DNA of 10,504 bases. Origin: a virus. Lineage: Duplodnaviria > Heunggongvirae > Uroviricota > Caudoviricetes. A program made the position numbers and the translations under genes. Location: the IMG/VR virus record IMGVR_UViG_2541047882_000009, positions 1 through 10,504 of that record; one strand, 5' to 3'. Within the stretch, counting starts at the first letter, position 1. Every line of letters begins with the position of its first letter. This document shows, piece by piece, positions 1 through 10,504 of the stretch. Under the pieces are notes generated by a model. It saw only the letters and a program-made list of their open reading frames with translations. It was not told the DNA's origin and did not search any database.

Positions 1-580
1 TTAATTTATTGAATTTAAACGATAAATATCGCCACAAATAACGTTAAAAATCGCAAATTGACTACACCATTAACTACACCGTTCGGTGCACTGTATGCAA
101 CAACGTGGAACAAATAGACACAAGCGATATACAGGAAGGGACGATTTTTCTATGCAGATTTGCATAGTTCTAAATGAAGCTGGTGGATGATCACGGATAA
201 CCCGTTATGGGGATCACCATATCGACATCACGCCCACCAGCGAGATTAGTTACCTGGTTGCTGATGGGGGGCTGACGAACCTCGATGTCAGGATGCACAA
301 AACTAGTGAGACCTTTTTTCTCTGCAACAGGCCCATAATTCGCGTTTTCTTTGTCTGCCGTAAGGTGGGGGATTTTGGGCGGATCCAGCAATGGCGCGGA
401 TTTTGTTATTTTTTATAGATAGACCTCACCTATCAATCACATGCACATCTTCCCAAAAAAAGTTTTCGAACTTGCGGCGATGTGAACAAGGGTAGGCGGG
501 CGGTCCCATAAGCAATGGGGCGTAGGGATTTCGATCCCCCCGGGGGTATTAAACACCCCCCTATTTAAATACCGTCTTTT

Positions 581-630
581 TTGTCACTGTGTGTCACTGG
601 TTGTCACTCTCCGTCACGGTATGTCACCAT
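581..630. repeat. Five tandem 10-bp direct repeats with GTCAC core (tTGTCACTnn)
   Basis: Seen in sequence: ttgtcactgt, gtgtcactgg, ttgtcactct, ccgtcacggt, atgtcaccat, contiguous at exact 10-bp phasing. One additional TTGTCACTCA copy lies at 1181-1190. Confidence 0.7.
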
Positions 631-633
631 AAG

Positions 634-918
634 TTAACGTCGTAACCGCTCCGGCTTCTTCCAGTGGTAAGTAATTTTTTCTTTCTCCTGGTACATCTGC
701 ACGCGGCGACGGTATGACAACATCTCCAGAACTCTGGTGCGTATATTGCGCATATCCACGCCGTTAAGCTCAATACCGTCACGGCGCATCACCTCAGCCA
801 CCACACGCGCGTAATTTTCGGCTATCACGCTGTCCGGCTGCGTGGCCTCCTGTTTGCCTGCTGCCTGGTTGGCTCCGGTAACGCGGCGAATCATTTTGAG
901 CATTTCGGCTTCGGTCAT
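634..918 (-). CDS. Hypothetical protein, 94 aa (six-frame ORF extends to 948)
   Basis: Seen in sequence: the preferred start is the ATG at 918, with a GGAGG SD 8 nt upstream; the earlier in-frame ATGs at 948 and 924 have no or poorly spaced SDs. No family recognised. An array of GTCAC repeats lies immediately 3-prime. Confidence 0.5.
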   Translation of the reverse strand: MTEAEMLKMIRRVTGANQAAGKQEATQPDSVIAENYARVVAEVMRRDGIELNGVDMRNIRTRVLEMLSYRRRVQMYQEKEKITYHWKKPERLRR

Positions 919-962
919 TGTCATGGCCTCCGTGATGATGGGAAACAATGCCGTAATTGTGG

Positions 963-1165
963 CGGGTCCTTCCTGGAAAATGAAACACCGGGGGTAGCCA
1001 TACGCGCAATTCTTAACTGTTTATGAAAATTTTTCGGGAAAAGTCAGATCCGTTCTTCTTCTCTGTAACTCATTGTTTAATGGTAAAATCATCAAAAAAA
1101 GAAAGGATCTGACAGTGGTCATTTTGGGCCAAAAATGACGTTATCAGATCCTTTCTCAGTTTTGT
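963..1165 (+). other. Second lambda-type cos region in inverted orientation, with different R-site motifs and no cognate terS downstream on its strand
   Basis: Seen in sequence: the plus-strand reading has TACGCGCAATTCTTAACTGTTTATGAAAATTTTTC (1001-1035, identical to the inverted copy at 1914-1948), then CAGATCCGTTCTTCTTC (lambda R3 GGCGTTTCCGTTCTTCTTCG), an AT-rich IHF-like segment, GAAAGGATCTGACAG (lambda R2 GAAAGGAAACGACAG) and TATCAGATCCTTTCTC (lambda R1 CTGTCGTTTCCTTTCTC). The R2/R1 dyad (1101-1112 and 1145-1156) with flanking A and T runs could also act as the terS terminator. Confidence 0.55.
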
Positions 1166-1183
1166 TCAATAATTGCGCGGTTG

Positions 1184-1768
1184 TCACTCACCTTTCTGTT
1201 GCCGTAATTTCTCCGGCACGTTTCCGGTTGTTTCCATCAGGTAGTCTTTCAGAATGCGGGGCAGGTTATCGGCAGTTTTAGCGCACGCATTACAGGCGCG
1301 TGCTGTTTCTTTCCTCAGGCCCTCGATCATTGCCGGAGTCATCGCGGGGAACTGCCTTTGCATTGTGAGCGGTAAACTATCCATGATCGAAGAAATCTGG
1401 CGCGCCAGACCACGAAGCGCATAGAGAACGAACTCAGTATCTGTAACTTCCCCCGCCTCTCTGGCGTTCTTCAGTTCCTGCCCGTCCGCCTGTGCTTTGG
1501 TGAGACGGTAGCGTTCGTACTCTGTTGTGCCTGGCTGTAAATCTGATTCACCAGCAGCACGTAAATCATCAAGCTCCCTGCGGAGTTTTTCGTTTTCGAT
1601 GTCCTTCTCCCTCTGTGCATACCATTCGATCACCTGTGCAGAGTCGAAAGTCACTTCCACACCTTTACCCCCACCAGATACATGGGGAAGCCCTTGCGTT
1701 TGCCATCGTTCAATCGTGCGCGGATCGACGCCAAAAATCTTCGCAAGATTATTTTTATTAACATTCAT
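1184..1768 (-). CDS. terS: Terminase small subunit, lambda Nu1 family, 194 aa
   Basis: Seen in sequence compared with recalled lambda Nu1: [103 protein letters not shown] aligns almost colinearly with [109 protein letters not shown] SD 10 nt upstream. The recognition-helix region differs from lambda. Confidence 0.9.
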   Translation of the reverse strand: [194 protein letters not shown]

Positions 1769-1985
1769 CTATCAATTCCTTATCAAAAACCAGTTCCGAC
1801 ATGAAACGCCAAAAAAACAGGATTTTTGGGCTTTATGATGTCGTATGTTTCTGGTGGTTGATTTTAATAAAAACAAACAGTTATGCGCGAGAAGTACCGA
1901 CATGCTTTTTCCTGAAAAATTTTCATAAACAGTTAAGAATTGCGCGTACACGTACCCCCCGTGTTTCAGATTCTGGAAAGGACCC
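1769..1985 (-). other. Lambda-type cos region (cosN-proximal segment plus cosB with R3-I1-R2-R1 layout) immediately upstream of terS
   Basis: Seen in sequence compared with the recalled lambda left end: the minus-strand reading contains CTGTTTATGAAAATTTTTCAGG (lambda CTATTTATGAAAATTTTCCGG), then CATAACTGTTTGTTTTTATTAAAATCAACC (lambda CATAACTTAATGTTTTTATTTAAAATACC, the IHF I1 region), flanked by three repeats: CATGTCGGTAC (about 1891-1905), inverted ATGTCGTATG (about 1836-1848) and CATGTCGGAAC (about 1790-1804). These occupy the positions of lambda R3, R2 (inverted) and R1, and the terS ATG follows as Nu1 does in lambda. The exact nick positions cannot be assigned. Confidence 0.6.
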
Positions 1986-2011
1986 GTGAAAATTGGGGTG
2001 ATCACCACCGT

Positions 2012-2042
2012 TCCGGACACAAAAAAATCGCGAGGCCTTGCC
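2012..2042 (-). terminator. Rho-independent terminator ending the head operon
   Basis: Seen in sequence: stem CGCGAGG / CCTCGCG (2020-2026 and 2036-2042) with a 9-nt loop; on the minus strand it is followed by a T run (complement of the A run at 2012-2018). It sits about 25 nt after the 141-aa gene stop. Confidence 0.55.
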
Positions 2043-2065
2043 AACCTCGCGAACGTTCATTTCAG

Positions 2066-2491
2066 TTACTTAACAGACAGCAACAGCTTTTCATCTTCGG
2101 TCAGTCCGGCGTTACCATCACCGGCTGCTGGCCCAACACATTTCGGGCTGTGCTTTTCCATGTACGCATCAAACAAAAAAGCCGTTTTCTTTTCCTGCAT
2201 CATTGCCTGGGCATCCACGGCAGCCAGTAACGTTTGTGCATAGGTTACTGTCATTACTTCAGAACCACACTCAATCAGCTTACTGGTGAATTCAGGGTAT
2301 TTTGATGCCAGCGGTAACGCCTTGATACCCTCTATGCGCTGTTTATCACTCTCAGCCTTTGCAGTAAGTACCGTTCGGGCTTCTGTCAGTGATGCGCCAT
2401 TATTTGCGAGATTTTCCGCAAGCGTCGGGTATTTCTGCGCCTCAGGCAGTGCCATGATCAATGCTCTGGTTGAATTTGCTTTCTCAGTCAT
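2066..2491 (-). CDS. Hypothetical protein, 141 aa, with an internal duplicated motif; last gene of the head operon
   Basis: Seen in sequence: GGTGA SD 4 nt upstream and a 14-nt gap after the gpD-like stop. An internal repeat is present: ALPEAQKYPTLAENL and ALPLASKYPEFTSKL. No family recognised; no convincing similarity to lambda FI, FII or W. Confidence 0.55.
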   Translation of the reverse strand: MTEKANSTRALIMALPEAQKYPTLAENLANNGASLTEARTVLTAKAESDKQRIEGIKALPLASKYPEFTSKLIECGSEVMTVTYAQTLLAAVDAQAMMQEKKTAFLFDAYMEKHSPKCVGPAAGDGNAGLTEDEKLLLSVK

Positions 2492-2505
2492 AAATCACCA
2501 CAAAA

Positions 2506-2835
2506 TTATTGCCCTAAAGGCTGCACGGAAATACCGGAACCAACAAAAGCCGACACTTTTTTCTCGAACGTGTCCGCTGTATCAGGCCAGTTAATTTCAT
2601 CGATATTAAAAACCCCGCACTTATAAACCTGTGCGCGGTTTTTTGTGGCCGTGTTAATGTCCGATATGGTCAGATACACCGCCTTACCGGGTGTACCGTC
2701 CCACTCAACCATCAGGCCCGCGCCGTTCTGCATCAGCGGAGTTCTCGCTTTAATTTCTCCGGCACTGGCAAAACAGGCCAGCGTGCTGACCAGTTCCTGC
2801 GTGCCGGAAAGGAATTGCGTGTAAGGTGTTGGCAT
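2506..2835 (-). CDS. Head decoration protein, lambda gpD family, 109 aa
   Basis: Seen in sequence compared with the recalled lambda gpD sequence: TPLM, WDGT, YKCGVF (lambda YKSGTF), WPD/WPE and AFVGSGISV (AFAGTAISIV), at the same length (109 versus 110 aa). It lies immediately downstream of the capsid gene with a good SD. Confidence 0.8.
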   Translation of the reverse strand: MPTPYTQFLSGTQELVSTLACFASAGEIKARTPLMQNGAGLMVEWDGTPGKAVYLTISDINTATKNRAQVYKCGVFNIDEINWPDTADTFEKKVSAFVGSGISVQPLGQ

Positions 2836-2845
2836 ACGATCCCCT

Positions 2846-3901
2846 TTATTTCACTTCGACGGTAACAAAGCGACCAATATCCACGGGTACTGGCTGCGGG
2901 GCGCTGTGCGTCTGCACGTATTCAATCGCCGGATCGCCAGGTACGATATAATTTTTCGGGTAGTACATCCCCTCAGAAAACCCCTCGCGTGCCGCGTCCT
3001 GATCCATGATGGCACCATAAGCAACAAGGCCTTTATTTTCGGTATTGCCGAAAACCATCATGTTTTGTTTCAGGAAATATTGCTGCTGCCCGCATTCGTC
3101 GTCATAACGACCGGAATAAACCACGAGCGCCACATCACCGAGATACCCCTTGAAGCTGACAACGCCGCCCAAATCTTTTAGCGCAAGTTCAAGTGACGAG
3201 TTTGAACCGCGACGCGTGTCCAGGAGTTCGCGGAATCGACGGAACGAGCGCAAAATACGCCAGGCTTCGCCACCCATGACGATAATATTTACCGTACCTT
3301 TGGAAAAATCAGCGTAAGCCTCAATGTCGCTTATCGGATCAAACGTCTCGGCATCCTGTTTTGACCATTCTTTCCCGCCAGCCTGTGTAATGTGATTGGT
3401 TGCGGGTAATCCCCAGTCAATTTCATAACGCTCAATGCCTTCGCCTTCGATAACGTTACGGCCTGTTGTGATGGCATTGACCGCCAGCCATTCAACACGC
3501 GCTTTGATGGCAGCAAGCTGTTTTTTCTGGCTGTCGTGAACCATTTTTACGCGGCGTAGTGCCGGGGAAGACTGACCATTGCCGATCTGTTCTCCAGCCA
3601 TGCGCATGATTGTTTTAGTGGGATCAATAACGTGTTTGGGCTTCATATAACCCGGCGTGAAAGTGTTCGTTGTAAAACCTTTGTCACGCATAACCTGACT
3701 GCCTGACATTGGTGAACAAAACGGACTCATGACCACGTTTTCAATATCCAGCGTATCAAGCGCAATATCTCGCGTACTGAACGTGGCGATATTCGGAAAA
3801 AACAGCGTCGTAAAGAGCGGATTAAATTTAAATTCCGGCACATCTTCTCGCCCGATATTTTTCAGTAGCGTTGGTGTGCTTACCAGTTGTGGCGCTGTCA
3901 T
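2846..3901 (-). CDS. Major capsid protein, lambda gpE family, 351 aa
   Basis: Seen in sequence compared with the recalled lambda gpE sequence: shared blocks FKFNPLF, FTPGYMKPKH (lambda FTPGYVKPKH), ITQAGGKEWSK (ITQSGGTEWSK), DPISDIEAYA (DPTDDIEAYA), VNIIV, DTRRGSNSSLE (DTRRGSNSELE), KGYLGDVALVVYSGRY (KGMYGDVAIVVYSGQY), YPKN, GDPA and SAP, at near-identical length (351 versus 341 aa). Confidence 0.9.
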   Translation of the reverse strand: MTAPQLVSTPTLLKNIGREDVPEFKFNPLFTTLFFPNIATFSTRDIALDTLDIENVVMSPFCSPMSGSQVMRDKGFTTNTFTPGYMKPKHVIDPTKTIMRMAGEQIGNGQSSPALRRVKMVHDSQKKQLAAIKARVEWLAVNAITTGRNVIEGEGIERYEIDWGLPATNHITQAGGKEWSKQDAETFDPISDIEAYADFSKGTVNIIVMGGEAWRILRSFRRFRELLDTRRGSNSSLELALKDLGGVVSFKGYLGDVALVVYSGRYDDECGQQQYFLKQNMMVFGNTENKGLVAYGAIMDQDAAREGFSEGMYYPKNYIVPGDPAIEYVQTHSAPQPVPVDIGRFVTVEVK

Positions 3902-4107
3902 TACTCACCCCCATGAGGCTGATTCATACCAAGCGCAGCGCGTAAATGGCTGCGTACCATCCAGCCGACTGACGGCTTCACCAGGCACAACGGATCAAGG
4001 CCGATTTTTTTTCCTGCCTCTGCGTTCTCCTCAAAGCGCGCATTAAGTGCGGCGATAATATCGGGGCTGATGTACACGGATACACCGCCCGGCTTCTGTG
4101 TTCCCAT
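3901..4107 (-). CDS. Hypothetical small protein, 68 aa, first gene of the head operon
   Basis: Seen in sequence: strong SD (AAGAGGAA) 9 nt upstream; the stop overlaps the capsid gene start (TAATG). No family recognised. Confidence 0.55.
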   Translation of the reverse strand: MGTQKPGGVSVYISPDIIAALNARFEENAEAGKKIGLDPLCLVKPSVGWMVRSHLRAALGMNQPHGGE

Positions 4108-4157
4108 AAATGAGATTCCTCTTTGACTAAAAAAATAAACATAACGAAAAGTCAGTC

Positions 4158-4223
4158 ATGATTTTAATCATCATTGCATTTTTTGCAATGCGATTGACTG
4201 TTGTTGCAAATCATGAAATGATT
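4158..4223 (-). promoter_or_regulatory. Candidate head-operon promoter overlapped by palindromic operator-like sites
   Basis: Seen in sequence: minus-strand sigma70-like promoter with -35 TTGCAA (4183-4188), 16-bp spacer and -10 TAAAAT (complement of 4161-4166). The palindrome ATGATT-TT-AATCAT (4158-4171) covers the -10 and CATTGCA-TTTTT-TGCAATG (4172-4190) covers the -35. A third palindrome AATCAT-GAA-ATGATT (4209-4223) shares the ATGATT half-site. Confidence 0.4.
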
Positions 4224-4284
4224 ATGCCGTGGTTTTAATCCTTGTACCACAGAGTCATTCAGCATTAATCACGTTAGCGGCGTG

Positions 4285-4320
4285 AAATCCCCCGGAACCT
4301 CATCCCGGGGGATTTTTTTT
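4285..4320 (+). terminator. Rho-independent terminator, plus-strand orientation, with no annotated plus-strand gene upstream
   Basis: Seen in sequence: perfect 11-bp stem AAATCCCCCGG / CCGGGGGATTT (4285-4295 and 4305-4315) with a 9-nt loop, followed by a T run to 4320. Confidence 0.55.
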
Positions 4321-4326
4321 ACGCAC

Positions 4327-4352
4327 AAAAAAGCCGGGAAAAATCCCGGCTT
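4327..4352 (-). terminator. Rho-independent terminator ending the replication/ssb operon
   Basis: Seen in sequence: stem AAGCCGGGA / TCCCGGCTT (about 4331-4339 and 4344-4352) with an AAAA loop; on the minus strand it is followed by a T run (complement of the A run at 4325-4332). It sits 15 nt after the ssb stop. Confidence 0.6.
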
Positions 4353-4366
4353 CTGTCACTCGTTGC

Positions 4367-4789
4367 TTAAAACGGTATGTTATCCCCGTACGGATCATCA
4401 TTTCCCGCCTGTTGTTTTGCCCTGTTCAGTGCGTCAGTAGCCTGGCCCTGCTGGCCTTTTTTGCCGCCCGGTCGCGCCGTCCGCGCACTGATTACGCTGT
4501 CTGCGATAACCTGCCAGCCCTGCCGCGTTTCGCCGTTCTGGCCTGTCCACTGGCTTACCTGCATGTTACCCGCCACGCTCACCAGTTCGCCTTTGTGGTG
4601 CTTTGCCAGTGCGTCGGCCTGTCTGCCAAACGCCATGACGGATAACCACATCGTCGCCGTTCCGTCATCTGCCTGGCTGCACGGCAGGGGAACCGCCATA
4701 CTCGCCATCGCCATTTGTGTCCCCTTGCTGGTGGTCTTTAACTGCGGGTCAGCCACCAGCCGCCCGTAAGCCGCTATCTGTGCTGTCAT
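4367..4789 (-). CDS. ssb: Single-stranded DNA-binding protein (short SSB), 140 aa
   Basis: Seen in sequence: OB-fold-like N-terminus (IAAYGRLVADPQLKTTSKG..., WLSVMAFGRQADALAKHHKGELVSVAGNMQVSQWTGQNGETRQ), a Gly/Gln-rich linker and an acidic tail ending DDPYGDNIPF. Established knowledge: this parallels E. coli SSB, including the C-terminal D-D-D-I-P-F protein-interaction tail. Confidence 0.85.
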   Translation of the reverse strand: MTAQIAAYGRLVADPQLKTTSKGTQMAMASMAVPLPCSQADDGTATMWLSVMAFGRQADALAKHHKGELVSVAGNMQVSQWTGQNGETRQGWQVIADSVISARTARPGGKKGQQGQATDALNRAKQQAGNDDPYGDNIPF

Positions 4790-5037
4790 GCTGTCTGTTC
4801 TCCGGTTTTAACGTTGATGGTTGTCACCTGTTCCGCTTCGGCAATCTCCCGCTCTGTCAGCGTGGCAAAGTTTGCCGCCGCCGTGGTCATGAATGCGCTT
4901 ATCAGTTCGGGATGTGCTTTCGCGTATCCTTCTCCGGCATGGCGGTCTATCGTTCTGATTGCCACCTTTAAGGCGTGCTCTGTCATGTCTAATGCGCGAT
5001 ATTTTGGTGCTGTCTTATCTCTGGTTTTTCTGGTCAT
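4786..5037 (-). CDS. Hypothetical protein, 83 aa (the six-frame ORF extends to 5169 but the upstream part is made of iterons)
   Basis: Seen in sequence: the internal Met at 5037 has an AGGTGG SD 4 nt upstream, and the 5-prime extension of the ORF overlaps the iteron array, so the shorter start is preferred. The stop overlaps the ssb start (ATGA). No family recognised. Confidence 0.5.
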   Translation of the reverse strand: MTRKTRDKTAPKYRALDMTEHALKVAIRTIDRHAGEGYAKAHPELISAFMTTAAANFATLTEREIAEAEQVTTINVKTGEQTA

Positions 5038-5040
5038 GCG

Positions 5041-5249
5041 CCCACCTGTGCCCACTTTTTCTACCCACTTTTCATGGTTTCCCACTTCGTCCCACCTGGG
5101 ATTTTGTGGTTTTATATCGTACTGTTTCATAAGAGTTTTTTTAGTGCCCACTTTTTGGGATGTATACACGTGGGAAAGTGGGCGATTTTGTTAAATTCCA
5201 GTTAAATTACCCACTATTCCCACTTTTAACGCCCACTTTTTACAGTGGG
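5041..5249. repeat. Iteron array, about 9 direct and 3 inverted copies of CCCACTTTT-like motif; candidate replication origin
   Basis: Seen in sequence: CCCAC(C/T)T copies starting at about 5041, 5051, 5064, 5081, 5091, 5147, 5210, 5219 and 5232, and inverted GTGGG copies at about 5170, 5178 and 5245. Inference: placement directly downstream of the rep gene stop matches the usual ori position in PICI/SaPI-type elements. Confidence 0.6.
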
Positions 5250-6646
5250 TGAACATCATCCCCATCGACGCAAATCACGCCGTCTTTTTCCAGTTTGGCT
5301 AACCATCGTTTAAGGTGTTTTGTGTCATATCCCAGCTTTTTCATGTCATCACGTAGCAGCGGGATCGTACATTTATCACCATGCTGTATACGCGACCGGA
5401 TACAACCCCATAAAGCCGTGTGATTTTCCGTCTTGTTCCCGGCCTCCTCTATGCGCTCCAGTTCAGCAGGGGCGCGGGGAACGTCAATCACCACCATGGA
5501 CACAATCTCTTCGCCATCTGTATCGGTGAACACCTCCACGCTTTTAAGATCGTATGCACTCTCTTTTGGCTCCTCTGCGTCCTTCATCTTCGTACACGCC
5601 GCCACCAGTGCTGTAACCTCTGAATTTTCCCGGCTGATTCGGTACTCTGCATCAAGCGCGGCACGGAATGCGCTGGAACCGCGCGCCCCCTTTGTTTCAT
5701 CCTTGCCGGAATGGTGAACCACCAGCACCGTGGCCCCTGTGGCCTGCTTTATCGCGTCACACCCCTGGATAAATGCGCCCATATCGCGGGAATCATTTTC
5801 ATCATTCCCACCAAAGCAACGGGCCAGCGTGTCGATCACAATCAGCCGCACATTTTCGCCCGTTCTGCTCTTAACAAGTCCGGCAGTCCTGATAACCTGC
5901 TCCACATAGTCAGGCGATGCGGGGAAGACAGGCGCGTTAACGATGCACAAATCTGTAACCACCTTGTCATGGGTTATCTCCCACGCCTTAACGCGGCGTT
6001 TTACGCCCATACTGCCTTCGCCAGCGATATAGATAACAGCGCCCTTACTTACCCTGCGGCCTCCCCATGCCATACCTGTGGCAACATGGCACGACCAGGA
6101 AATAGCCAGGAACGATTTATAAGAACCGCTGGCCCCGTAGGTGCTGCATAATGACTCAGCCGGAATAAGCCCCTTAATTACGTAGCTTTGCTGCGCGTCG
6201 AATCCCTCAGAACCCCATGAGATGGGAAGTGTGATTTTTCGCTTTCCACCATTCATGACCAGACTTTCCCCGCGTTCCCAGGTTTCTTTAAGCCGCGGTA
6301 GTTGCTCGCTCCAGTCCTCCAGCAGTTCGAAATTCTCTGAAAGTAACCGTGCTTCCTGGACACCTGCGATCGCCAGTTTGGTGGCAATGGTCAGCATCTG
6401 CATATCGTCCAGGTTTCCGGCGCGTATGACCTTTGCTCTGTATCGTCCTTCATCAACAATCTGTAAATTGTCCAGTTCGCTTAACTGATAACGGCCCAGG
6501 TAAACCGGAGGGATGGGATCGCCTGCTTTTTTGGCCTGTGCAATCATGTAATGTTCTGCAAAGGAGTGAGCATTATCACCCGCAAAAATAACCGCCTCAG
6601 TGTGTTTATCTTTCGGTAACAGTTTTACGTTCGGTGCCAGTTTCAT
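5240..6646 (-). CDS. Replication initiator/helicase-type ATPase, RepA-like (AAA_25 RecA-fold core), 468 aa, with a C-terminal winged-helix-like tail
   Basis: Seen in sequence: Walker A-like GASGSYKS, Walker B-like RLIVIDTL followed by VLVVHHSGKDETKG, in the arrangement LIPAESLCSTYGASGSYKSFLAISW...AVIYIAGEGS typical of AAA_25/RepA-like proteins. Established knowledge: such proteins act as replication initiators or helicases in PICIs, plasmids and integrative elements. The N-terminal 150 aa is unassigned and has no obvious primase motifs. An iteron array lies immediately 3-prime. Confidence 0.8.
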   Translation of the reverse strand: MKLAPNVKLLPKDKHTEAVIFAGDNAHSFAEHYMIAQAKKAGDPIPPVYLGRYQLSELDNLQIVDEGRYRAKVIRAGNLDDMQMLTIATKLAIAGVQEARLLSENFELLEDWSEQLPRLKETWERGESLVMNGGKRKITLPISWGSEGFDAQQSYVIKGLIPAESLCSTYGASGSYKSFLAISWSCHVATGMAWGGRRVSKGAVIYIAGEGSMGVKRRVKAWEITHDKVVTDLCIVNAPVFPASPDYVEQVIRTAGLVKSRTGENVRLIVIDTLARCFGGNDENDSRDMGAFIQGCDAIKQATGATVLVVHHSGKDETKGARGSSAFRAALDAEYRISRENSEVTALVAACTKMKDAEEPKESAYDLKSVEVFTDTDGEEIVSMVVIDVPRAPAELERIEEAGNKTENHTALWGCIRSRIQHGDKCTIPLLRDDMKKLGYDTKHLKRWLAKLEKDGVICVDGDDVHPL

Positions 6647-6942
6647 TTTTTACCTCTGGATGCGCTGAGCATGCTTTTTATTTTCTTAATATTTTCCCGT
6701 GCTTTTTCCCTGCTGGTGGGCTTACCGCGTGTTACGTTCTGTACCAGAGAAAAATCACGCCGGAACTGATAAACAGGCATCACGCAGTCATAGCCGTACC
6801 CATCACGGCGGTAAGTAACACACCGTCCCGCCACGCTTTTAATCGTTACAGTGCCGCCGTATTTATCTTTGAAAATATCGCCGGGGCGGATTTCAGGCCG
6901 AGCGGGGCCGCTGGCAGTAAAGCCAGAAATTTTCTGTTTCAT
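6643..6942 (-). CDS. Hypothetical basic protein, 99 aa (possibly DUF4222-like)
   Basis: Seen in sequence: ORF whose stop overlaps the rep start (ATGA). The motif GDIFKDKYGGTVTIKSVAGRCVTYRRDGYGYDCVMPVYQFRRDF is reminiscent of small prophage proteins found upstream of primase/rep genes; this is a recollection with low certainty. Confidence 0.5.
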   Translation of the reverse strand: MKQKISGFTASGPARPEIRPGDIFKDKYGGTVTIKSVAGRCVTYRRDGYGYDCVMPVYQFRRDFSLVQNVTRGKPTSREKARENIKKIKSMLSASRGKK

Positions 6943-6947
6943 GGTTT

Positions 6948-7181
6948 TTATTTCCCGGTGTGTTGTTCTTTATATCTGTCGTGCAAAAGGTCTATTTCTT
7001 GTAGTTCCATTATTACCGGCTCAAGAAGCGTTATTAACGCCGTCGCAATATTGCTGTTGCGTTTATTTCTTTCATTATCGCCAAGCGTTTCAAGCCATAA
7101 GCGCAATATTTCAAGCATGTTTTCACTGTAAGCAAGAGCACGGTATGCACGGTCTACTGTGTCATTGTAAATATCACACAT
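6948..7181 (-). CDS. Hypothetical helical protein, 77 aa
   Basis: Seen in sequence: start overlaps the stop of the 154-aa gene; the stop lies 5 nt before the next start. No family recognised. Confidence 0.5.
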   Translation of the reverse strand: MCDIYNDTVDRAYRALAYSENMLEILRLWLETLGDNERNKRNSNIATALITLLEPVIMELQEIDLLHDRYKEQHTGK

Positions 7182-7638
7182 GGCTTACATCCTCCGGGAA
7201 TTTTCTTCTGTAACGCGCCTCTGCCACATATTCCGCATAGTCCGACGCAATATTGAGAATATCGCTACCCGTTCCTGAATGTTTGGCGGTTTCCAGCAAA
7301 AAACATGCAGCTTTTACCATGTCAGCAACACATAACAGCGCAATATCTGTATCTTCCGGTGCGCCATCAAATTCCTGTTTCAGGGCATTAAAACGATCAT
7401 CACGCATAACCCCCCCATTTTCACAATCAGCAATCAGGATGGCTTTAGCCTCATTCAGTGCCATATCAGCGGTAAGCTGTGCGTAGGCCAGCGAATGGGG
7501 GATTATTTCCCCTGTATATTCCGTCTCTCTGGTAATGTGTTTTTCTGCGGTTGCTGCCGTGCATGAAATATCAATCAGCGCGTGCATCAGCGTTTTGATG
7601 GCTTCGGCGGCTGCGTCCGGACGGGTGTTATTGCACAT
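7174..7638 (-). CDS. Hypothetical acidic protein, 154 aa
   Basis: Seen in sequence: ORF with start overlapping the upstream stop and stop overlapping the downstream start, so it is translationally coupled within the operon. No family recognised. Confidence 0.6.
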   Translation of the reverse strand: MCNNTRPDAAAEAIKTLMHALIDISCTAATAEKHITRETEYTGEIIPHSLAYAQLTADMALNEAKAILIADCENGGVMRDDRFNALKQEFDGAPEDTDIALLCVADMVKAACFLLETAKHSGTGSDILNIASDYAEYVAEARYRRKFPEDVSHV

Positions 7639-7834
7639 GGCGCACCCCCTGACGAATACGGGCGGCGAATACCATCACACAGCCAGCCGGGGATTGCTGG
7701 CGTGCTTCCTGTTCGCTGGTGGCCTCAATGGTAATCACACGCGGTTGTGCCGTGCTCAGGGCGATAAAACGCCAGATGTATTTATTCAGGTTGTGCGAGT
7801 CCCGCCCTTGCGGGTGTGTGGTATGATTTCTCAT
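7628..7834 (-). CDS. Small protein, 68 aa, resembling Icd/Ash-like proteins of P4-like elements
   Basis: Seen in sequence: ATG at 7834 preceded by a GAGGT SD; the stop overlaps the start of the next gene (ATGTGCAATAA). It forms the in-frame C-terminal part of the spurious long ORF 7628..8680. Recalled, not searched: the motif ...RFIALSTAQPRVITIEATSEQEARQQSPAGCVMVFAARIRQ resembles Icd-like host cell division inhibitor family proteins. Confidence 0.5.
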   Translation of the reverse strand: MRNHTTHPQGRDSHNLNKYIWRFIALSTAQPRVITIEATSEQEARQQSPAGCVMVFAARIRQGVRHVQ

Positions 7835-8030
7835 AGCTACCTCGATACGCTTTCTATCGTTGGTGGTTAGACGCCCTGCATGTGTGCCACCACTGCGGGG
7901 CGTTGCTGTATATACACCACAATTATTGGTGTGCATACAGATTAAATTTAAGTGTGCTACAGTGTCAAGTGTTTTATTAACACACCTTTTGGTGTAATGT
8001 GTACACACCTCAAAATAACCGGACATCCTA
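7835..8030. promoter_or_regulatory. Divergent promoter/operator region between the small-regulator gene and the replication operon
   Basis: Seen in sequence: AT-rich gap containing several ACACC/GGTGT inverted repeats (ACACC-N9-GGTGT near 7914-7932, ACACC-TTTT-GGTGT near 7982-7995, GTGTACAC near 7999-8006). A minus-strand sigma70-like promoter is present: -35 TTGACA (complement of 7963-7968), 16-bp spacer, -10 TTTAAT (complement of 7941-7946). A leader hairpin lies near 7872-7900. Confidence 0.5.
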
Positions 8031-8330
8031 ATGGCAACAGGAAACATCAACAGCAGATCGCAAATGAAAAATATCCGCTTCCCCCATGATGTAATCGAGG
8101 AAATGGAAAATTCGAAAACGGAAGGGGAAACAATAGCCGCTTTCGTGATTACAGCTGTTCGCGGGGAGATCGCCCGCCGCCAAGCTGAAGGAAGCGGAGA
8201 AAATCCCCTGGTTTCTTCGCTCGATGCACTGGCGCAGGTGGAAAAAATTGGAGTCAAAGCTGCCGAGGAGATCGGGCAACTCGTCGCCGTCGCGCGTGAA
8301 GAACTCCAGCGCCGCAAGGCCAAAGAATAG
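8031..8330 (+). CDS. Small DNA-binding protein, ribbon-helix-helix-like; candidate repressor of the divergent replication operon
   Basis: Seen in sequence: 99-aa ORF and the only convincing plus-strand gene, divergent from the minus-strand operon. Inference: the N-terminal segment KNIRFPHDVIEEMENSKTEGETIAAFVITAVRGEIARR fits a beta-strand then two helices as in Arc/MetJ/CopG folds. The SD is weak (GGA only) and the true start could be the internal Met at codon 12. Confidence 0.5.
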   Translation: MATGNINSRSQMKNIRFPHDVIEEMENSKTEGETIAAFVITAVRGEIARRQAEGSGENPLVSSLDALAQVEKIGVKAAEEIGQLVAVAREELQRRKAKE

Positions 8331-8437
8331 GAATAGCCCACCAGCAAGCCAGCACACTGATCACATTGCCCACCAGCCGCAAATGTGGCATTGTTGGCTA
8401 TGCTCATGCGTTGGGGATAACGTGTAGCTTGTGTCGA

Positions 8438-8468
8438 GGGGCCACCGTAGCGGGTGGCCTTTGTTTTG
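8438..8468 (+). terminator. Rho-independent terminator downstream of the plus-strand regulator gene
   Basis: Seen in sequence: stem GGCCACC / GGTGGCC (8440-8446 and 8453-8459) with loop GTAGCG, followed by TTGTTTT. Confidence 0.55.
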
Positions 8469-8563
8469 CCTGTTATCCTGCAACTATGGTCATTTCGACC
8501 ACGGTTGATATAACCCCCCTGCACTGATCCAATTTTTTCGCAGCAGGTTAATTGTTCAGAAAG

Positions 8564-8591
8564 GCGGCTCCATTTCGGGGCCGCTTTTTTT
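8564..8591 (+). terminator. Second plus-strand rho-independent terminator
   Basis: Seen in sequence: stem GCGGCTCC / GGGGCCGC (one G-U pair) with loop ATTTC, followed by a run of seven T. Confidence 0.55.
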
Positions 8592-8732
8592 ATGCCTGAA
8601 AAACCACAATTTTGTTGTTTTCCAGTCTCACCAGGACGAGCGAAGCCCCGCCCCTGTTCGGGCGTATATCCAGTCTTCATGGTTAAATCTCTGTATTAGT
8701 GGATGGGAGGCGGCTGTGTGCCGCCAGCCTGA

Positions 8733-8936
8733 TTAGTGAACTGCCTCGCGGCTGTCCTTCCATGCCAGAACTTCGGATAAAGACCAGCCAACGGAACGAC
8801 CGCCGAGTTTACGCCGTGATGGGAATTGTCCGGTTTTTTCCAGGCGGTACCGACATGAGCGGCTCAGGCCTGTAAGTTGCTGACATTCTTTTTCACGTAT
8901 AAAGCGATCAGTGCTTAACACTATTGCCTCCGTCAT
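8733..8936 (-). CDS. alpA: AlpA-family (excisionase-like, MerR-type HTH) DNA-binding regulator, 67 aa
   Basis: Seen in sequence: 67-aa ORF downstream of int on the same strand. Established knowledge: the size and the motif ...QQLTGLSRSCRYRLEKTGQFPSRRKLGGRSVGWSLSEVLAWK... are typical of AlpA/Vis-like regulators of P4-like prophages and Gram-negative PICIs. An int then alpA order is the canonical layout. Confidence 0.8.
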   Translation of the reverse strand: MTEAIVLSTDRFIREKECQQLTGLSRSCRYRLEKTGQFPSRRKLGGRSVGWSLSEVLAWKDSREAVH

Positions 8937-9189
8937 TTCTCAAAGAGTCATTTGGTGTCTTATTGTGTCGTATTGTTCCCGCTGGAGTGATGAATGGCAA
9001 ATATTGGTGACGGCCATTTTACAGAAATGGGGTAATTAGAATAAAAATACTTTTAAATCATTGTGATAAAGTAGCGTAAAATTCTGTTTTTACGTCTTTT
9101 TTACATGTTTTTAAGAGTGATTCGCCAGTGTATAAAAAAACAGTATGCATATAAAAATCAAATGTTTATGGCGCTGTTTGATTTTTAAT

Positions 9190-9257
9190 CCGTTTGTTCC
9201 AGATTGTTCGCCGTTGTTCGTCGTGGTGTCTCGTTGTTTCACGTTGTGTCCGTTCTG
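9190..9257. repeat. Six to seven tandem 10-bp direct repeats (nCGTTGTKTC) downstream of int and upstream of the alpA promoter
   Basis: Seen in sequence: ccgtttgttc, cagattgttcg, ccgttgttcg, tcgtggtgtc, tcgttgtttc, acgttgtgtc at 10-bp phasing. A related trio (TTGGTGTC, TTGTGTCG, TTGTTCC) at 10-bp phasing lies at about 8944-8973, directly upstream of the alpA start. Confidence 0.65.
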
Positions 9258-9274
9258 AAAAATCGCGAAAAAAA

Positions 9275-10504
9275 TTATATTTCTCTGGCTATTGGCAGTG
9301 TGGTTACGTTTTCGTGAGCACCTGCCAGTATCTCTAATCGCTCTGTCCACATATCCAGCGCGTTACGTTTCGCATCAATATAGCGGGAGTGGTTATAGAC
9401 TCGTTGCATCCCTGGCATCTGGTGGGCGGTAAGTTGCTCGACAATATGCGGATCCACGCCTAAATCGTTCAGCATCGTGGTAAACGTGCGCCGTATATCG
9501 TGCAGGGACCAGTGAGGATGGTTTAATTTTTTGTGCGTAAATCTGCCGTATTGTGACACGCTGGCTTCCTGTTTCAGTTCTCCGAGTAATAACCCTGTGT
9601 GCCTGTTCTGCTCCACCAGCTGCGTGACGAACGGCAAAATGCTTTCCGGTATTGGCCTGAATATGGCGACCTTCGTTTTGCTGTGTTCTTTCGGTACCGT
9701 CCAGAGCATTTCCTTAAAATCCCACTCCCTGATCTCCGACAGCCTCAGTTCTCCGGTCCGGCAGCCGAACACAATCAGGAGGCGGATTAGTGCGCTGTAG
9801 TAGGGCGGGAATATTTTTTTATCCAGCGCCTGTAATAATTCGCCCAGTTCTTTGTTACTAAGCACGCGTTCGCTTATGCCCGGCTTTTTGCCAACGTCCA
9901 GCACGTTGAGATCATCCAGAACGTTACTGACTGCGTAGCGACGTTTACGGCAGAACTTAAGCGCCTGTTTGCACGCCTGCATCATGTGGCCAGATGTTAC
10001 GGGTGATTTTTTGCGTATCCGGTCAAAACAGGCCAGCCAGTGACGCAACTCGCATTTATCCAGCGGCATATTGCCAATATGCTGTATGACGTGATTATTC
10101 AGGCGGCTTTTCAGGGAGACGTAATCGACACGGTTTTCCTTTACGTGCATTTCCAGCCAGTAGCTGATCGCATCGCCTACCGTTACCGGCTTTAGTGCTT
10201 CCTGTATGGAGTAATTAAGCTCATGGCGTGGATTTTTTCCCTCTGCCAGCCATGCGCGACACTGTGCTGCTTTTTCCCTGGCTGCTTTCAGGCTCAGATC
10301 CGGATAATTTCCCAGCTTCAGGCGTTCCGGTGATACCTGGCGTCCTGTTCCTGCCCTGTAGGTGAAATACCAGGTTAACAGACCGCTGGTGGAGTGTCTG
10401 ATACTCAGATTTCCACCGTCATTAAGAAAGGTGGTTTTTTGGGCTGGTGTGCCGTTGATTTTTCTTAGCTGCGTGTCGCTCAGTTTGTTAAGTGCCCTGC
10501 TCAT
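9275..10504 (-). CDS. int: Tyrosine site-specific integrase, P4-type, 409 aa
   Basis: Seen in sequence: 409-aa ORF whose ATG is the last three bases of the window. Established knowledge: the N-terminal arm-binding-like segment (LSDTQLRK...FLNDGGNLSIR...WYFTYR...LKLGNYPDLSLKAAREKA) and the C-terminal catalytic region with HxxR and a terminal Tyr context (HDIRRTF...HQMPGMQRVYNHSRY) match the P4 integrase family layout. The promoter and any att site or tRNA would lie beyond the window. Confidence 0.9.
   Translation of the reverse strand: MSRALNKLSDTQLRKINGTPAQKTTFLNDGGNLSIRHSTSGLLTWYFTYRAGTGRQVSPERLKLGNYPDLSLKAAREKAAQCRAWLAEGKNPRHELNYSIQEALKPVTVGDAISYWLEMHVKENRVDYVSLKSRLNNHVIQHIGNMPLDKCELRHWLACFDRIRKKSPVTSGHMMQACKQALKFCRKRRYAVSNVLDDLNVLDVGKKPGISERVLSNKELGELLQALDKKIFPPYYSALIRLLIVFGCRTGELRLSEIREWDFKEMLWTVPKEHSKTKVAIFRPIPESILPFVTQLVEQNRHTGLLLGELKQEASVSQYGRFTHKKLNHPHWSLHDIRRTFTTMLNDLGVDPHIVEQLTAHQMPGMQRVYNHSRYIDAKRNALDMWTERLEILAGAHENVTTLPIAREI

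Follow-up and report, generated by a model that had tools for sequence, protein, structure and literature searches.

The 10,504-nucleotide stretch of DNA analysed here (positions 1 to 10,504 of the IMG/VR virus record IMGVR_UViG_2541047882_000009, hereafter the window) is very probably a complete and apparently intact phage-inducible chromosomal island (PICI) of about 10.5 kb, which belongs to the small terminase (TerS) subtype of the EcCICFT073 family and would be mobilised via the cos machinery of a helper phage. It is a classical Gram-negative PICI, or 'Type A' in the terms of SatelliteFinder, and it carries a unit of four genes encoding a 68-aa protein (p68), a lambda-E-type coat protein (E'), a gpD-like decoration protein (D') and a scaffold-like protein. 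As a catalogue entry the window is ordinary, being one more PICI of a family carried by a large proportion of E. coli genomes; the set of capsid, decoration and small-terminase genes is a published family trait, and the architecture of this further member is not new. What is new is a scaffold homolog, a lead to the helper, a caveat on published negative results and one suggestive monomer in public data. We tentatively propose that the four-gene unit p68-E'-D'-scaffold contributes the shell of the satellite particles, a reading that is possible but falls short of being probable. It is more doubtful that the module builds small, monomer-sized capsids packaging cos-cut 10.5-kb monomers, which would represent a 'half-way' state between classical and capsid-forming PICIs.

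The open reading frame (ORF) listing and profile searches of the window reveal a single element, nearly all of it encoded on the minus strand. Its left end bears the att core (56-81, plus strand), a 26-nt direct repeat of the island, AATTGACTACACCATTAACTACACCG, which differs by one mismatch from the core of a relative in E110019 and for which zero chance matches are expected. In E110019, a collinear island lies directly between smrA and abgR, with the 26-nt core repeated 10,536 bp apart, and in CEA224S a collinear island is located between yejO and tRNA-Pro. Because of these att repeats and the core-gene flanks in relatives, the element can be regarded as complete at about 10.5 kb and not as the end of a prophage. 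The first-pass annotation, which had read the region as a satellite, had noted that a full head-tail module to its left would make it a small or defective prophage; the att core at 56-81 and the flanks of the relatives argue against such a module, and the satellite reading stands. Also borne out by Pfam and PHROG searches and by repeat reading is its list of the functions found alongside the capsid genes, i.e., int, alpA, rep, an iteron origin and ssb. The general features of PICIs are present, with int and AlpA at one end, mostly unidirectional genes and a size within about 10-15 kb, as are all five SatelliteFinder PICI core components, scored with Pfam and not with SatelliteFinder's own profiles. 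The packaging module consists of a Nu1-type TerS between two cos sites, capsid morphogenesis is represented by a Pfam Phage_cap_E match (2e-46), and the gene content, with a RepA/AAA_25 helicase and iterons, points to autonomous replication functions.

Pfam and PHROG profiles of portal, protease, large terminase (TerL), connector, tail and lysis families found no match among the window ORFs of at least 50 aa, which agrees with the earlier statement that the element lacks a portal, a protease and a large terminase. Membership of the capsid-forming PICIs was rejected, since no island-encoded portal, protease, adaptor/connector or TerL was found in these ORFs. Such islands (EcCIEDL933; Alqurainy 2023) resemble the window in being satellites that have their own HK97-fold coat and small terminase and use helper tails; they differ from it in that they also encode portal, protease, head-tail connectors, HNH and TerL, and the capsid and TerS trees part PICIs from capsid-forming PICIs (SatelliteFinder). 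P4, a cos satellite of 11 kb, likewise has a P4-type integrase and AlpA and is packaged by the helper terminase. However, P4-like membership was rejected as well: no PHROG or Pfam match to Sid, Psu, Delta, Ash/epsilon or the alpha primase-helicase was obtained, only Int and AlpA are common to both, and P4 uses the helper coat with an external scaffold. The distinctions drawn at first pass from P4-type satellites and from capsid-forming PICIs are therefore both upheld. The helper-embedded satellites (11capE) of Tommasini, Mageeney and Williams (2022) are organised in the same way, likewise with a capsid gene of the lambda E family, and relatives of the window coat protein occur in that form. 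The window itself was not assigned to them, as its left-end att core and flank match the chromosomal smrA-abgR site of E110019, which is the att site used by its closest full-length relative. Of 5,426 complete E. coli genomes, 1,986 contain sequence that matches some part of the window, and its homolog clusters have hundreds to thousands of members in E. coli; a megablast search with the entire window gave no match in 50,697 phage records, and NCBIfam profiles gave no useful names for its ORFs.

The closest well-described system is EcCICFT073 (Fillol-Salom 2018, 2019), the model Gram-negative PICI, for which helper-dependent induction, packaging and high-frequency transfer are known (PMC6092414). 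It is of the same size class and has the same int-alpA-...-DUF4222-rep-ori-ssb backbone, followed by the order p68-coat-decoration-137/141-aa ORF-cos-[Rpp or TerS]-cos-93/104-aa ORF, with the terminator, the cosQ/cosN elements and two inverted cos sites, the latter also reported in EcCICFT073. Identities between the two islands amount to 63% for p68, 64.5% for the major capsid protein (MCP; c1499, i.e., AAN79968 and PDB 3BQW), 49% for the decoration protein, 29% for the 141-aa ORF, 71% for the single-strand DNA-binding protein (SSB), 63% for DUF4222 and 74% for the terminal ORF. By contrast, EcCICFT073 has Rpp between its cos sites, its cosN is of the lambda type (GGGCGGCGACCT), its Rep is of the primase type and it possesses a PerC gene, whereas the window combines a Nu1-type TerS, and cosB R-sites that match it, with GGT-N6-ACG variants of cosN and a RepA/AAA_25 helicase. 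The first-pass annotation had set the element apart from classical PICIs on the ground that these are capsid-less. The staphylococcal SaPIs do lack a capsid gene, but the present family does not: EcCICFT073 is collinear with the window and possesses c1499 and c1500, the capsid and decoration genes that were described and mutated in 2018, in a study that also noted TerS in other E. coli PICIs (PMC6092414). A capsid gene is present in 21 of the 29 reference Gram-negative PICIs (Tommasini et al.), and SatelliteFinder counts 'capsid morphogenesis' and terS among the five PICI core components, the complete set ('Type A') being 97% E. coli. The TerS-encoding PICIs of IHE3034 and 18098 (Fillol-Salom 2018) are likened to the window by description only, having Int, AlpA, rep, a capsid-morphogenesis gene and terS; neither was mobilised in the published tests (PMC6092414).

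The morphogenetic genes lie at 1184-4107 on the minus strand, where lambda E-, D- and Nu1-type homologs had been placed at first pass; profile and structure searches confirm all three, and the same region yields two things that had been missed, namely a 141-aa scaffold homolog (2066-2491) and two cos sites flanking terS. The HMM and structure searches that had been proposed for the 351-aa and 109-aa proteins returned Phage_cap_E/gpE and HDPD/gpD matches, respectively. E', the 351-aa MCP (2846-3901, minus strand), matches Pfam Phage_cap_E at 2e-46, lambda gpE (7VI9) at 2e-86 and PDB 3BQW ('putative capsid protein of prophage, E. coli CFT073') at 1e-151, and its AlphaFold model superimposes on lambda gpE with a TM of 0.82-0.86 and on 3BQW with a TM of 0.91. 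It is 45% identical to lambda E and at most 48% identical to any phage protein in the collection of 50,697 records. D' (109 aa; 2506-2835, minus strand) matches Pfam HDPD at 9e-8, phrog_49 at 1e-18 and lambda gpD structures at about 5e-9, with 34-37% identity to phage D proteins and 56% to the D protein of the E110019 island (49% to c1500, as given above). The conserved p68 ORF (3901-4107, minus strand; phrog_3255 at 2e-24) shares an ATGA overlap with the coat gene, to which it is predicted on that arrangement to be translationally coupled; identity reaches 63% with the ORF upstream of c1499 and 65% with its counterpart in the contig L013 described below, and among close relatives p68 is 100% conserved.

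The capsid module is bounded by terminators at both sides. A promoter-like site, TTGCAA-16-TAAAAT (4161-4192, minus strand), matches by consensus only; it lies downstream of the ssb terminator, overlaps the perfect palindrome CATTGCAAAAAATGCAATG and is the putative start of the capsid-module transcription unit. At the other end, the unit is closed by an intrinsic terminator (2028-2052, minus strand) formed of a 10-bp stem with six GC pairs followed by a T7 run, and a hairpin occupies the same position in EcCICFT073. The beginning of p68 resembles by eye a ribbon-helix-helix motif (VSVYISPDIIAALNARFEE), and no profile matched it. It might be that p68 autoregulates the capsid module via the palindrome. 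The coat, decoration, scaffold-like and terS genes are all under purifying selection, with dN/dS values of 0.08-0.22 for E', 0.07-0.15 for the 141-aa scaffold-like gene and 0.04-0.20 for TerS, and with all four, D' included, within 0.04-0.22.

The fourth gene of the module (2066-2491, minus strand) encodes a free-standing protein of 141 aa, likely of the Nu3/gpC C-terminal type, with two 'ALPEA...LA..L...T...A.T.L.A' repeats and a conserved C-terminal tail. It is 36% identical over 131 aa (E 2e-8) to residues 416-537 of the 538-aa S49 protease-scaffold of an Stx2e prophage, in which the repeat is present at least four times, and a profile hit (1.6e-8) links it to the C-terminus of phrog_53 (head maturation protease). 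The similarity to the 137-aa ORF of EcCICFT073 reaches an E value of 2e-7, and that counterpart is named 'head-tail preconnector', the old gpC/Nu3 name, in some databases. The AlphaFold model of the 141-aa protein is all-helical with a pLDDT of 75; Foldseek found no match to this model, and a phmmer search against 1.8 billion representatives returned the protein itself only. On the strength of the pairwise alignment, the PHROG profile and the repeat architecture, the assignment as a scaffold homolog is likely but not proven. In the relative L014, a full-length S49 protease-scaffold follows D', at the position of the window's 141-aa protein.

The satellite coat proteins have a history of their own. 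In a homolog search and distance tree, they form a clade separate from that of the phages, with members 50-99% identical to the window MCP as compared with at most 48% for the phage clade, and with hosts that include E. coli, Salmonella, Edwardsiella, Lelliottia, Serratia, Cedecea and Scandinavium. Satellite-clade MCPs carry an insertion of three to four residues in the N-arm, around residue 20, and the positions that discriminate between the clades cluster in the predicted long spine helix (residues 126-150) and near the C-terminus (326-340). No conclusion about the T number is drawn from these positions. Every satellite-clade context that was opened contains int, rep and the E'-D' pair, with AlpA in all but one and a small p68-like ORF before the pair in most, and none of them has a full head module of its own. 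Across Enterobacterales, E', D' and p68 co-occur in a clade confined to satellites, whose identity to phage E does not exceed 50%, and D' and the scaffold-like protein co-diverge with E'. Several relatives of the clade are nested in prophage late genes: L014 (3220-7129) is integrated inside E and L018 (765-12681) inside a portal gene, while L017 and L011 (1-1900) sit beside P2-type tail genes. L014, L018 and L017 show the helper-embedded feature.

The predicted packaging determinants are terS and the cos sites on either side of it. The 194-aa Nu1-type TerS (1184-1768, minus strand) matches Pfam Phage_Nu1 at 4e-68, and its residues 1-98 match the TerS chain found in the Rpp complex (PDB 6HN7_B, 1.5e-38). 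It is 70% identical to the Nu1 of PhiR5_1, 61% to that of the Stx2e prophage and 52% to that of lambda. The recognition-helix region is nearly the same as in the Stx2e-prophage Nu1, and the cosB of that prophage shares CATGTCGG sites. The last 54 residues (141-194; window 1184-1345) are 61% identical to those of the otherwise divergent TerS of the E110019 island, including a 13-residue tail, which points to the C-terminal third as a satellite-specific surface for docking TerL or for some other interaction.

The 297-bp non-coding stretch upstream of terS aligns with lambda cos. Within it lies cos1 (1769-1990, minus strand), in which a cosQ GGGTCCTTTCC (1985-1975) is accompanied by the cohesive end of 12 nt predicted at 1956-1945 (GGTACGTGTACG), by TTTATGAAAA and by an A/T block resembling an IHF site, and its cosB has R-like sites of the form CATGTCGG(T/A)AC at 1904-1894, 1843-1837 (inverted) and 1803-1793, directly upstream of terS and in the R3-R2-R1 arrangement of lambda. 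The reading of cos1 rests on alignments with the cos regions of lambda, PhiR5_1 and the Stx2e prophage, the 12-nt core being placed in the register of lambda. Its layout and spacing are those of lambda and its cosQ is identical, while the predicted cosN would differ at 8 of the 12 overhang positions; the lambda cohesive-end sequence is absent from the window. The second site, cos2 (963-1165, plus strand), is inverted relative to cos1 and was identified by sequence reading and alignment with the cos regions of lambda, A19 and EcCICFT073. Its elements are a cosQ-like GGGTCCTTCC, the 12-nt end GGTAGCCATACG predicted at 993-1004, TTTATGAAAA and R-like sites CAGATCC(G/T)TTCT at 1045-1056, 1100-1111 (inverted) and 1145-1156, which are more lambda-like than those of cos1. 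The different 12-nt cores and R-site families of cos1 and cos2 may let the island use two helper types. Across islands and prophages, the cosN core takes the form GGT-N6-ACG (window 1945-1956; L006 at about 6010-6030; L007 and L008 at about 6020; L014 6270-6290), with constant flanks and six central bases that differ in nearly every case examined. This variable family contrasts with the invariant sequence of lambda, phi80 and the CFT073 elements.

One suggestive observation on what such cos sites may produce comes from a public contig. The Logan contig ERR3179760_2320 (L013; 10,599 bp) derives from a related Rpp-type PICI whose MCP is 70% identical to the window's, and it holds the excised form of the island, passing through attP, as a linear monomer of 10.56 kb. 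It starts with an Illumina paired-end (PE) adapter tail, followed by GGTTTTCGGAGG-TGCGG...TTTATGAAAATTTT, and ends with ...GGGTCCTTTCT-18 nt-GGTTTTCGGAGG and then the first adapter bases. L013 thus looks like end-repaired, cos-cut, unit-length DNA whose 12-nt overhang was filled in, exactly in the register of lambda. The cut predicted for cos1 is supported by this contig, because its physical ends fall in the same register. The ends also speak for monomers, since packaging as concatemers of four units only should give more uncut junctions than ends and a self-closing contig. The cos junction of L013 has zero exact matches in IMG/VR, and a literature search on run ERR3179760 found nothing; two sibling runs contain this contig too. 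The other island-sized contigs checked (L019, L020, L016, L014 and L101) are integrated or chimeric copies and are not cos-terminated, and the contig names of the IMG/VR viral calls L021 and L022 suggest regions cut from isolate genomes.

By analogy with the characterised relatives, a helper phage would activate alpA, the island would excise through Int and AlpA at the att core and replicate from the iteron origin with its own RepA helicase and SSB, and the helper's cos apparatus would package it. The anatomy of the packaging region suggests that the island TerS binds the cosB R-sites beside its own gene and would recruit the large terminase of the helper (gpA type) to cut the GGT-N6-ACG cosN of the island, a step that Rpp performs in sister islands. 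In the proposed final step, p68, E', D' and the Nu3-like scaffold would assemble a satellite-specified shell on the helper portal, with the protease, terminase, connectors and tail of the helper, and this shell would possibly be small enough for a monomer. Judged by empirical scaling from P2/P4 and 80alpha/SaPI1, a putative T=3 shell of the lambda type would hold about 11 kb. As to the helper, the Stx2e prophage of RM10740, also found in many porcine enterotoxigenic E. coli (ETEC), has a cosQ, a spacer and a cosB nearly identical to those of cos1 and a related cosN, and joins a lambda-type head module (Nu1, A, W, B, C, D, E, FI, FII) to a contractile tail. The best candidates are likely to be lambdoid phages with lambda-type heads that share this cos family, i.e., Stx2e-type contractile-tail prophages and PhiR5_1-like phages.

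Several observations weigh against a shell-building role for the module. With lambda as the helper, EcCICFT073 packaged only phage-sized DNA (Fillol-Salom 2018, PMC6092414), deletion of c1499 or c1500 altered neither transfer nor interference with lambda (PMC6092414), and transfer was kept when c1498-c1501 were replaced by cas9 (Ibarra-Chavez et al.). The A19 and C5 islands (L007 and L008; yejO site), which share the backbone of the window and whose TerS shows 94-98% identity to its own (a value computed for A19), carry PerC and ProQ/FinO genes instead of the capsid module. Against the overall interpretation of the island, the C-terminal region of the window TerS, expected to bind TerL, is only 20-48% identical to the phage Nu1 proteins compared, and an exact search of IMG/VR for the window's cosN gave zero matches. 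As for the cos-ended monomer, it is a single contig, its sample type is not established, and it comes from a relative and not from this island. The published deletions call for a caveat of their own. The tested EcCICFT073 derivatives (c1501::tetA, c1499::cat and c1498-c1501::cas9) all disrupted the module, if c1498 is equated with p68 and c1501 with the scaffold-like ORF from locus-tag order, only c1499 being verified by accession; because every marked derivative tested inactivated the module, a small-capsid role could have been missed. Moreover, PmCI172 encodes an MCP homolog and makes small capsids (PMC6092414). The mechanism advanced at first pass, in which the satellite coat and decoration proteins redirect capsid size, thus faces negative direct tests in EcCICFT073, obtained with disrupted modules, and finds some support in the cos-ended monomer of a relative. 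It is also less novel than had been thought, as capsid-size redirection through an own coat protein has already been raised for this family by analogy with SaPIbov5 Ccm, and a Ccm-like role of the family's capsid homologs has been discussed (Dokland 2019).

The phage-sized DNA of EcCICFT073 and the dispensability of its module for transfer would fit an accessory or interference unit, in which E', D' and the short scaffold poison or divert the capsid assembly of a helper or of a competing lambdoid phage (by a dominant-negative, Ccm-like or titration effect) and the island travels as concatemers of about four units in phage-sized heads made by the helper. It has been stated in the literature that cos islands need to be exact fractions of the helper genome, four times 10.5 kb being 42 kb or 87% of lambda, and the module, termed an 'adaptable module', is swapped for unrelated genes in sister islands. 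Yet deletion of c1499 or c1500 did not relieve the interference with lambda, there is no obvious reason for a poison to bring a decoration protein and a scaffold that co-evolve with it, the satellite coats form an old, monophyletic clade that does not track individual helpers, and the cos-ended monomer is a misfit for packaging as concatemers only, so that we consider this explanation rather unlikely. It is improbable that the coat and decoration genes are spare helper late genes, there to make up for the interruption or under-expression of E, or of a gene near it, in the helper. This backup idea was proposed by Tommasini et al. for helper-embedded satellites, and relatives are indeed integrated in or near prophage late genes (L014 in E, L018 in the portal gene, L017 and L011 beside tail genes). 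However, the window island and its E110019 relative belong to a chromosomal site outside any prophage, L018 has E' and D' although it interrupts the portal gene and not E, satellite E' is one clade and not the product of repeated captures, and it is only about 45% identical to helper-type E even when satellite and helper are nested. Least credible of all, and highly improbable, is a decayed lambdoid prophage with leftover head genes, despite the lambda-family affinity of these genes and the treatment of such regions as prophage-like by NCBI annotation and IMG/VR. This candidate was ruled out by the precise att repeats, the core-gene flanks, purifying selection and a gene order (E-D-scaffold-cos-terS) that is not that of lambda (Nu1-A-W-B-C-D-E); in addition, this 10-11 kb layout is found again at other sites and with other integrases, and relatives have been experimentally mobilised.

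Under the preferred reading, that of a satellite-specified shell, the island recalls two staphylococcal strategies. SaPIbov5 Ccm is a satellite homolog of the helper coat, and in SaPI1, CpmB acts as a satellite scaffold in competition with that of the helper; by analogy, the window would have one candidate of each kind, E' being Ccm-like and the Nu3-like 141-aa protein CpmB-like. There is no sequence relationship between these systems, the window adds a decoration protein of its own, and size redirection is known in the staphylococcal systems but not in the E. coli family. The commonest late gene of Gram-negative PICIs, a lambda-E-type coat gene with a decoration partner, was first deleted seven years ago. 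The question of its function is sharpened by a bounded transcription unit, purifying selection, a scaffold homolog, the breakage of the module in earlier tests and a cos-cut monomer of a relative. If satellite-specific shells are indeed made, they would bridge classical and capsid-forming PICIs and show how small capsids of the lambda type can be reached with a minimal set of three proteins, which would be of use for engineered delivery particles.

Comparison of sister islands gives a view of how the capsid and packaging genes are combined. In the ETEC1732 island, a capsid module sharing 99% identity with that of the window is combined with a gene for a 146-aa RppC homolog (PDB 6HLK, 1.5e-33), which takes the place of terS. 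Because ETEC1732 has the module with Rpp while A19 and C5 have TerS without the module, it follows that modules reassort. The C5 island carries a PAAR/S-type pyocin/immunity cassette downstream of terS. In the ETEC1732 island, the RepA helicase gene has an internal stop (L010 6799-8214), and some copies of the family are therefore decaying.

The remaining features of the window are as follows. Next to the left end lies a conserved terminal ORF (634-948, minus strand), listed as 104 aa of which about 94 aa are conserved, which matches phrog_1561 at 3e-49, is the counterpart of the last ORF of EcCICFT073 and has no significant PDB match. Beyond the capsid module are the SSB gene (4367-4789, minus strand; Pfam SSB at 2e-16) and an iteron-type origin (5040-5250, no strand assigned), in which at least eight copies of (G/T)CCCACTTT occur in both orientations 3' of rep, in agreement with the position reported for Gram-negative PICIs. 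The 468-aa RepA/AAA_25 replicative helicase (5240-6646, minus strand) matches Pfam AAA_25 at 4e-43 and phrog_2850 at 3e-186. DUF4222 (6643-6942) is one of several small ORFs in that region. The AlpA-family regulator/excisionase (8733-8936, minus strand) matches Pfam Phage_AlpA at 3e-18, and the right end is occupied by a 409-aa tyrosine integrase with a P4-type arm-binding domain (9275-10504, minus strand; Pfam Arm-DNA-bind_3 and Phage_integrase). A divergent YlcI/YnfO-type gene is encoded on the plus strand (8031-8330). For a 350-aa ORF (7628-8680, minus strand), which overlaps both this gene and the divergent regulatory region, no family was matched; it is unlikely to be a gene, the relatives having small Icd-like and hypothetical genes annotated there.

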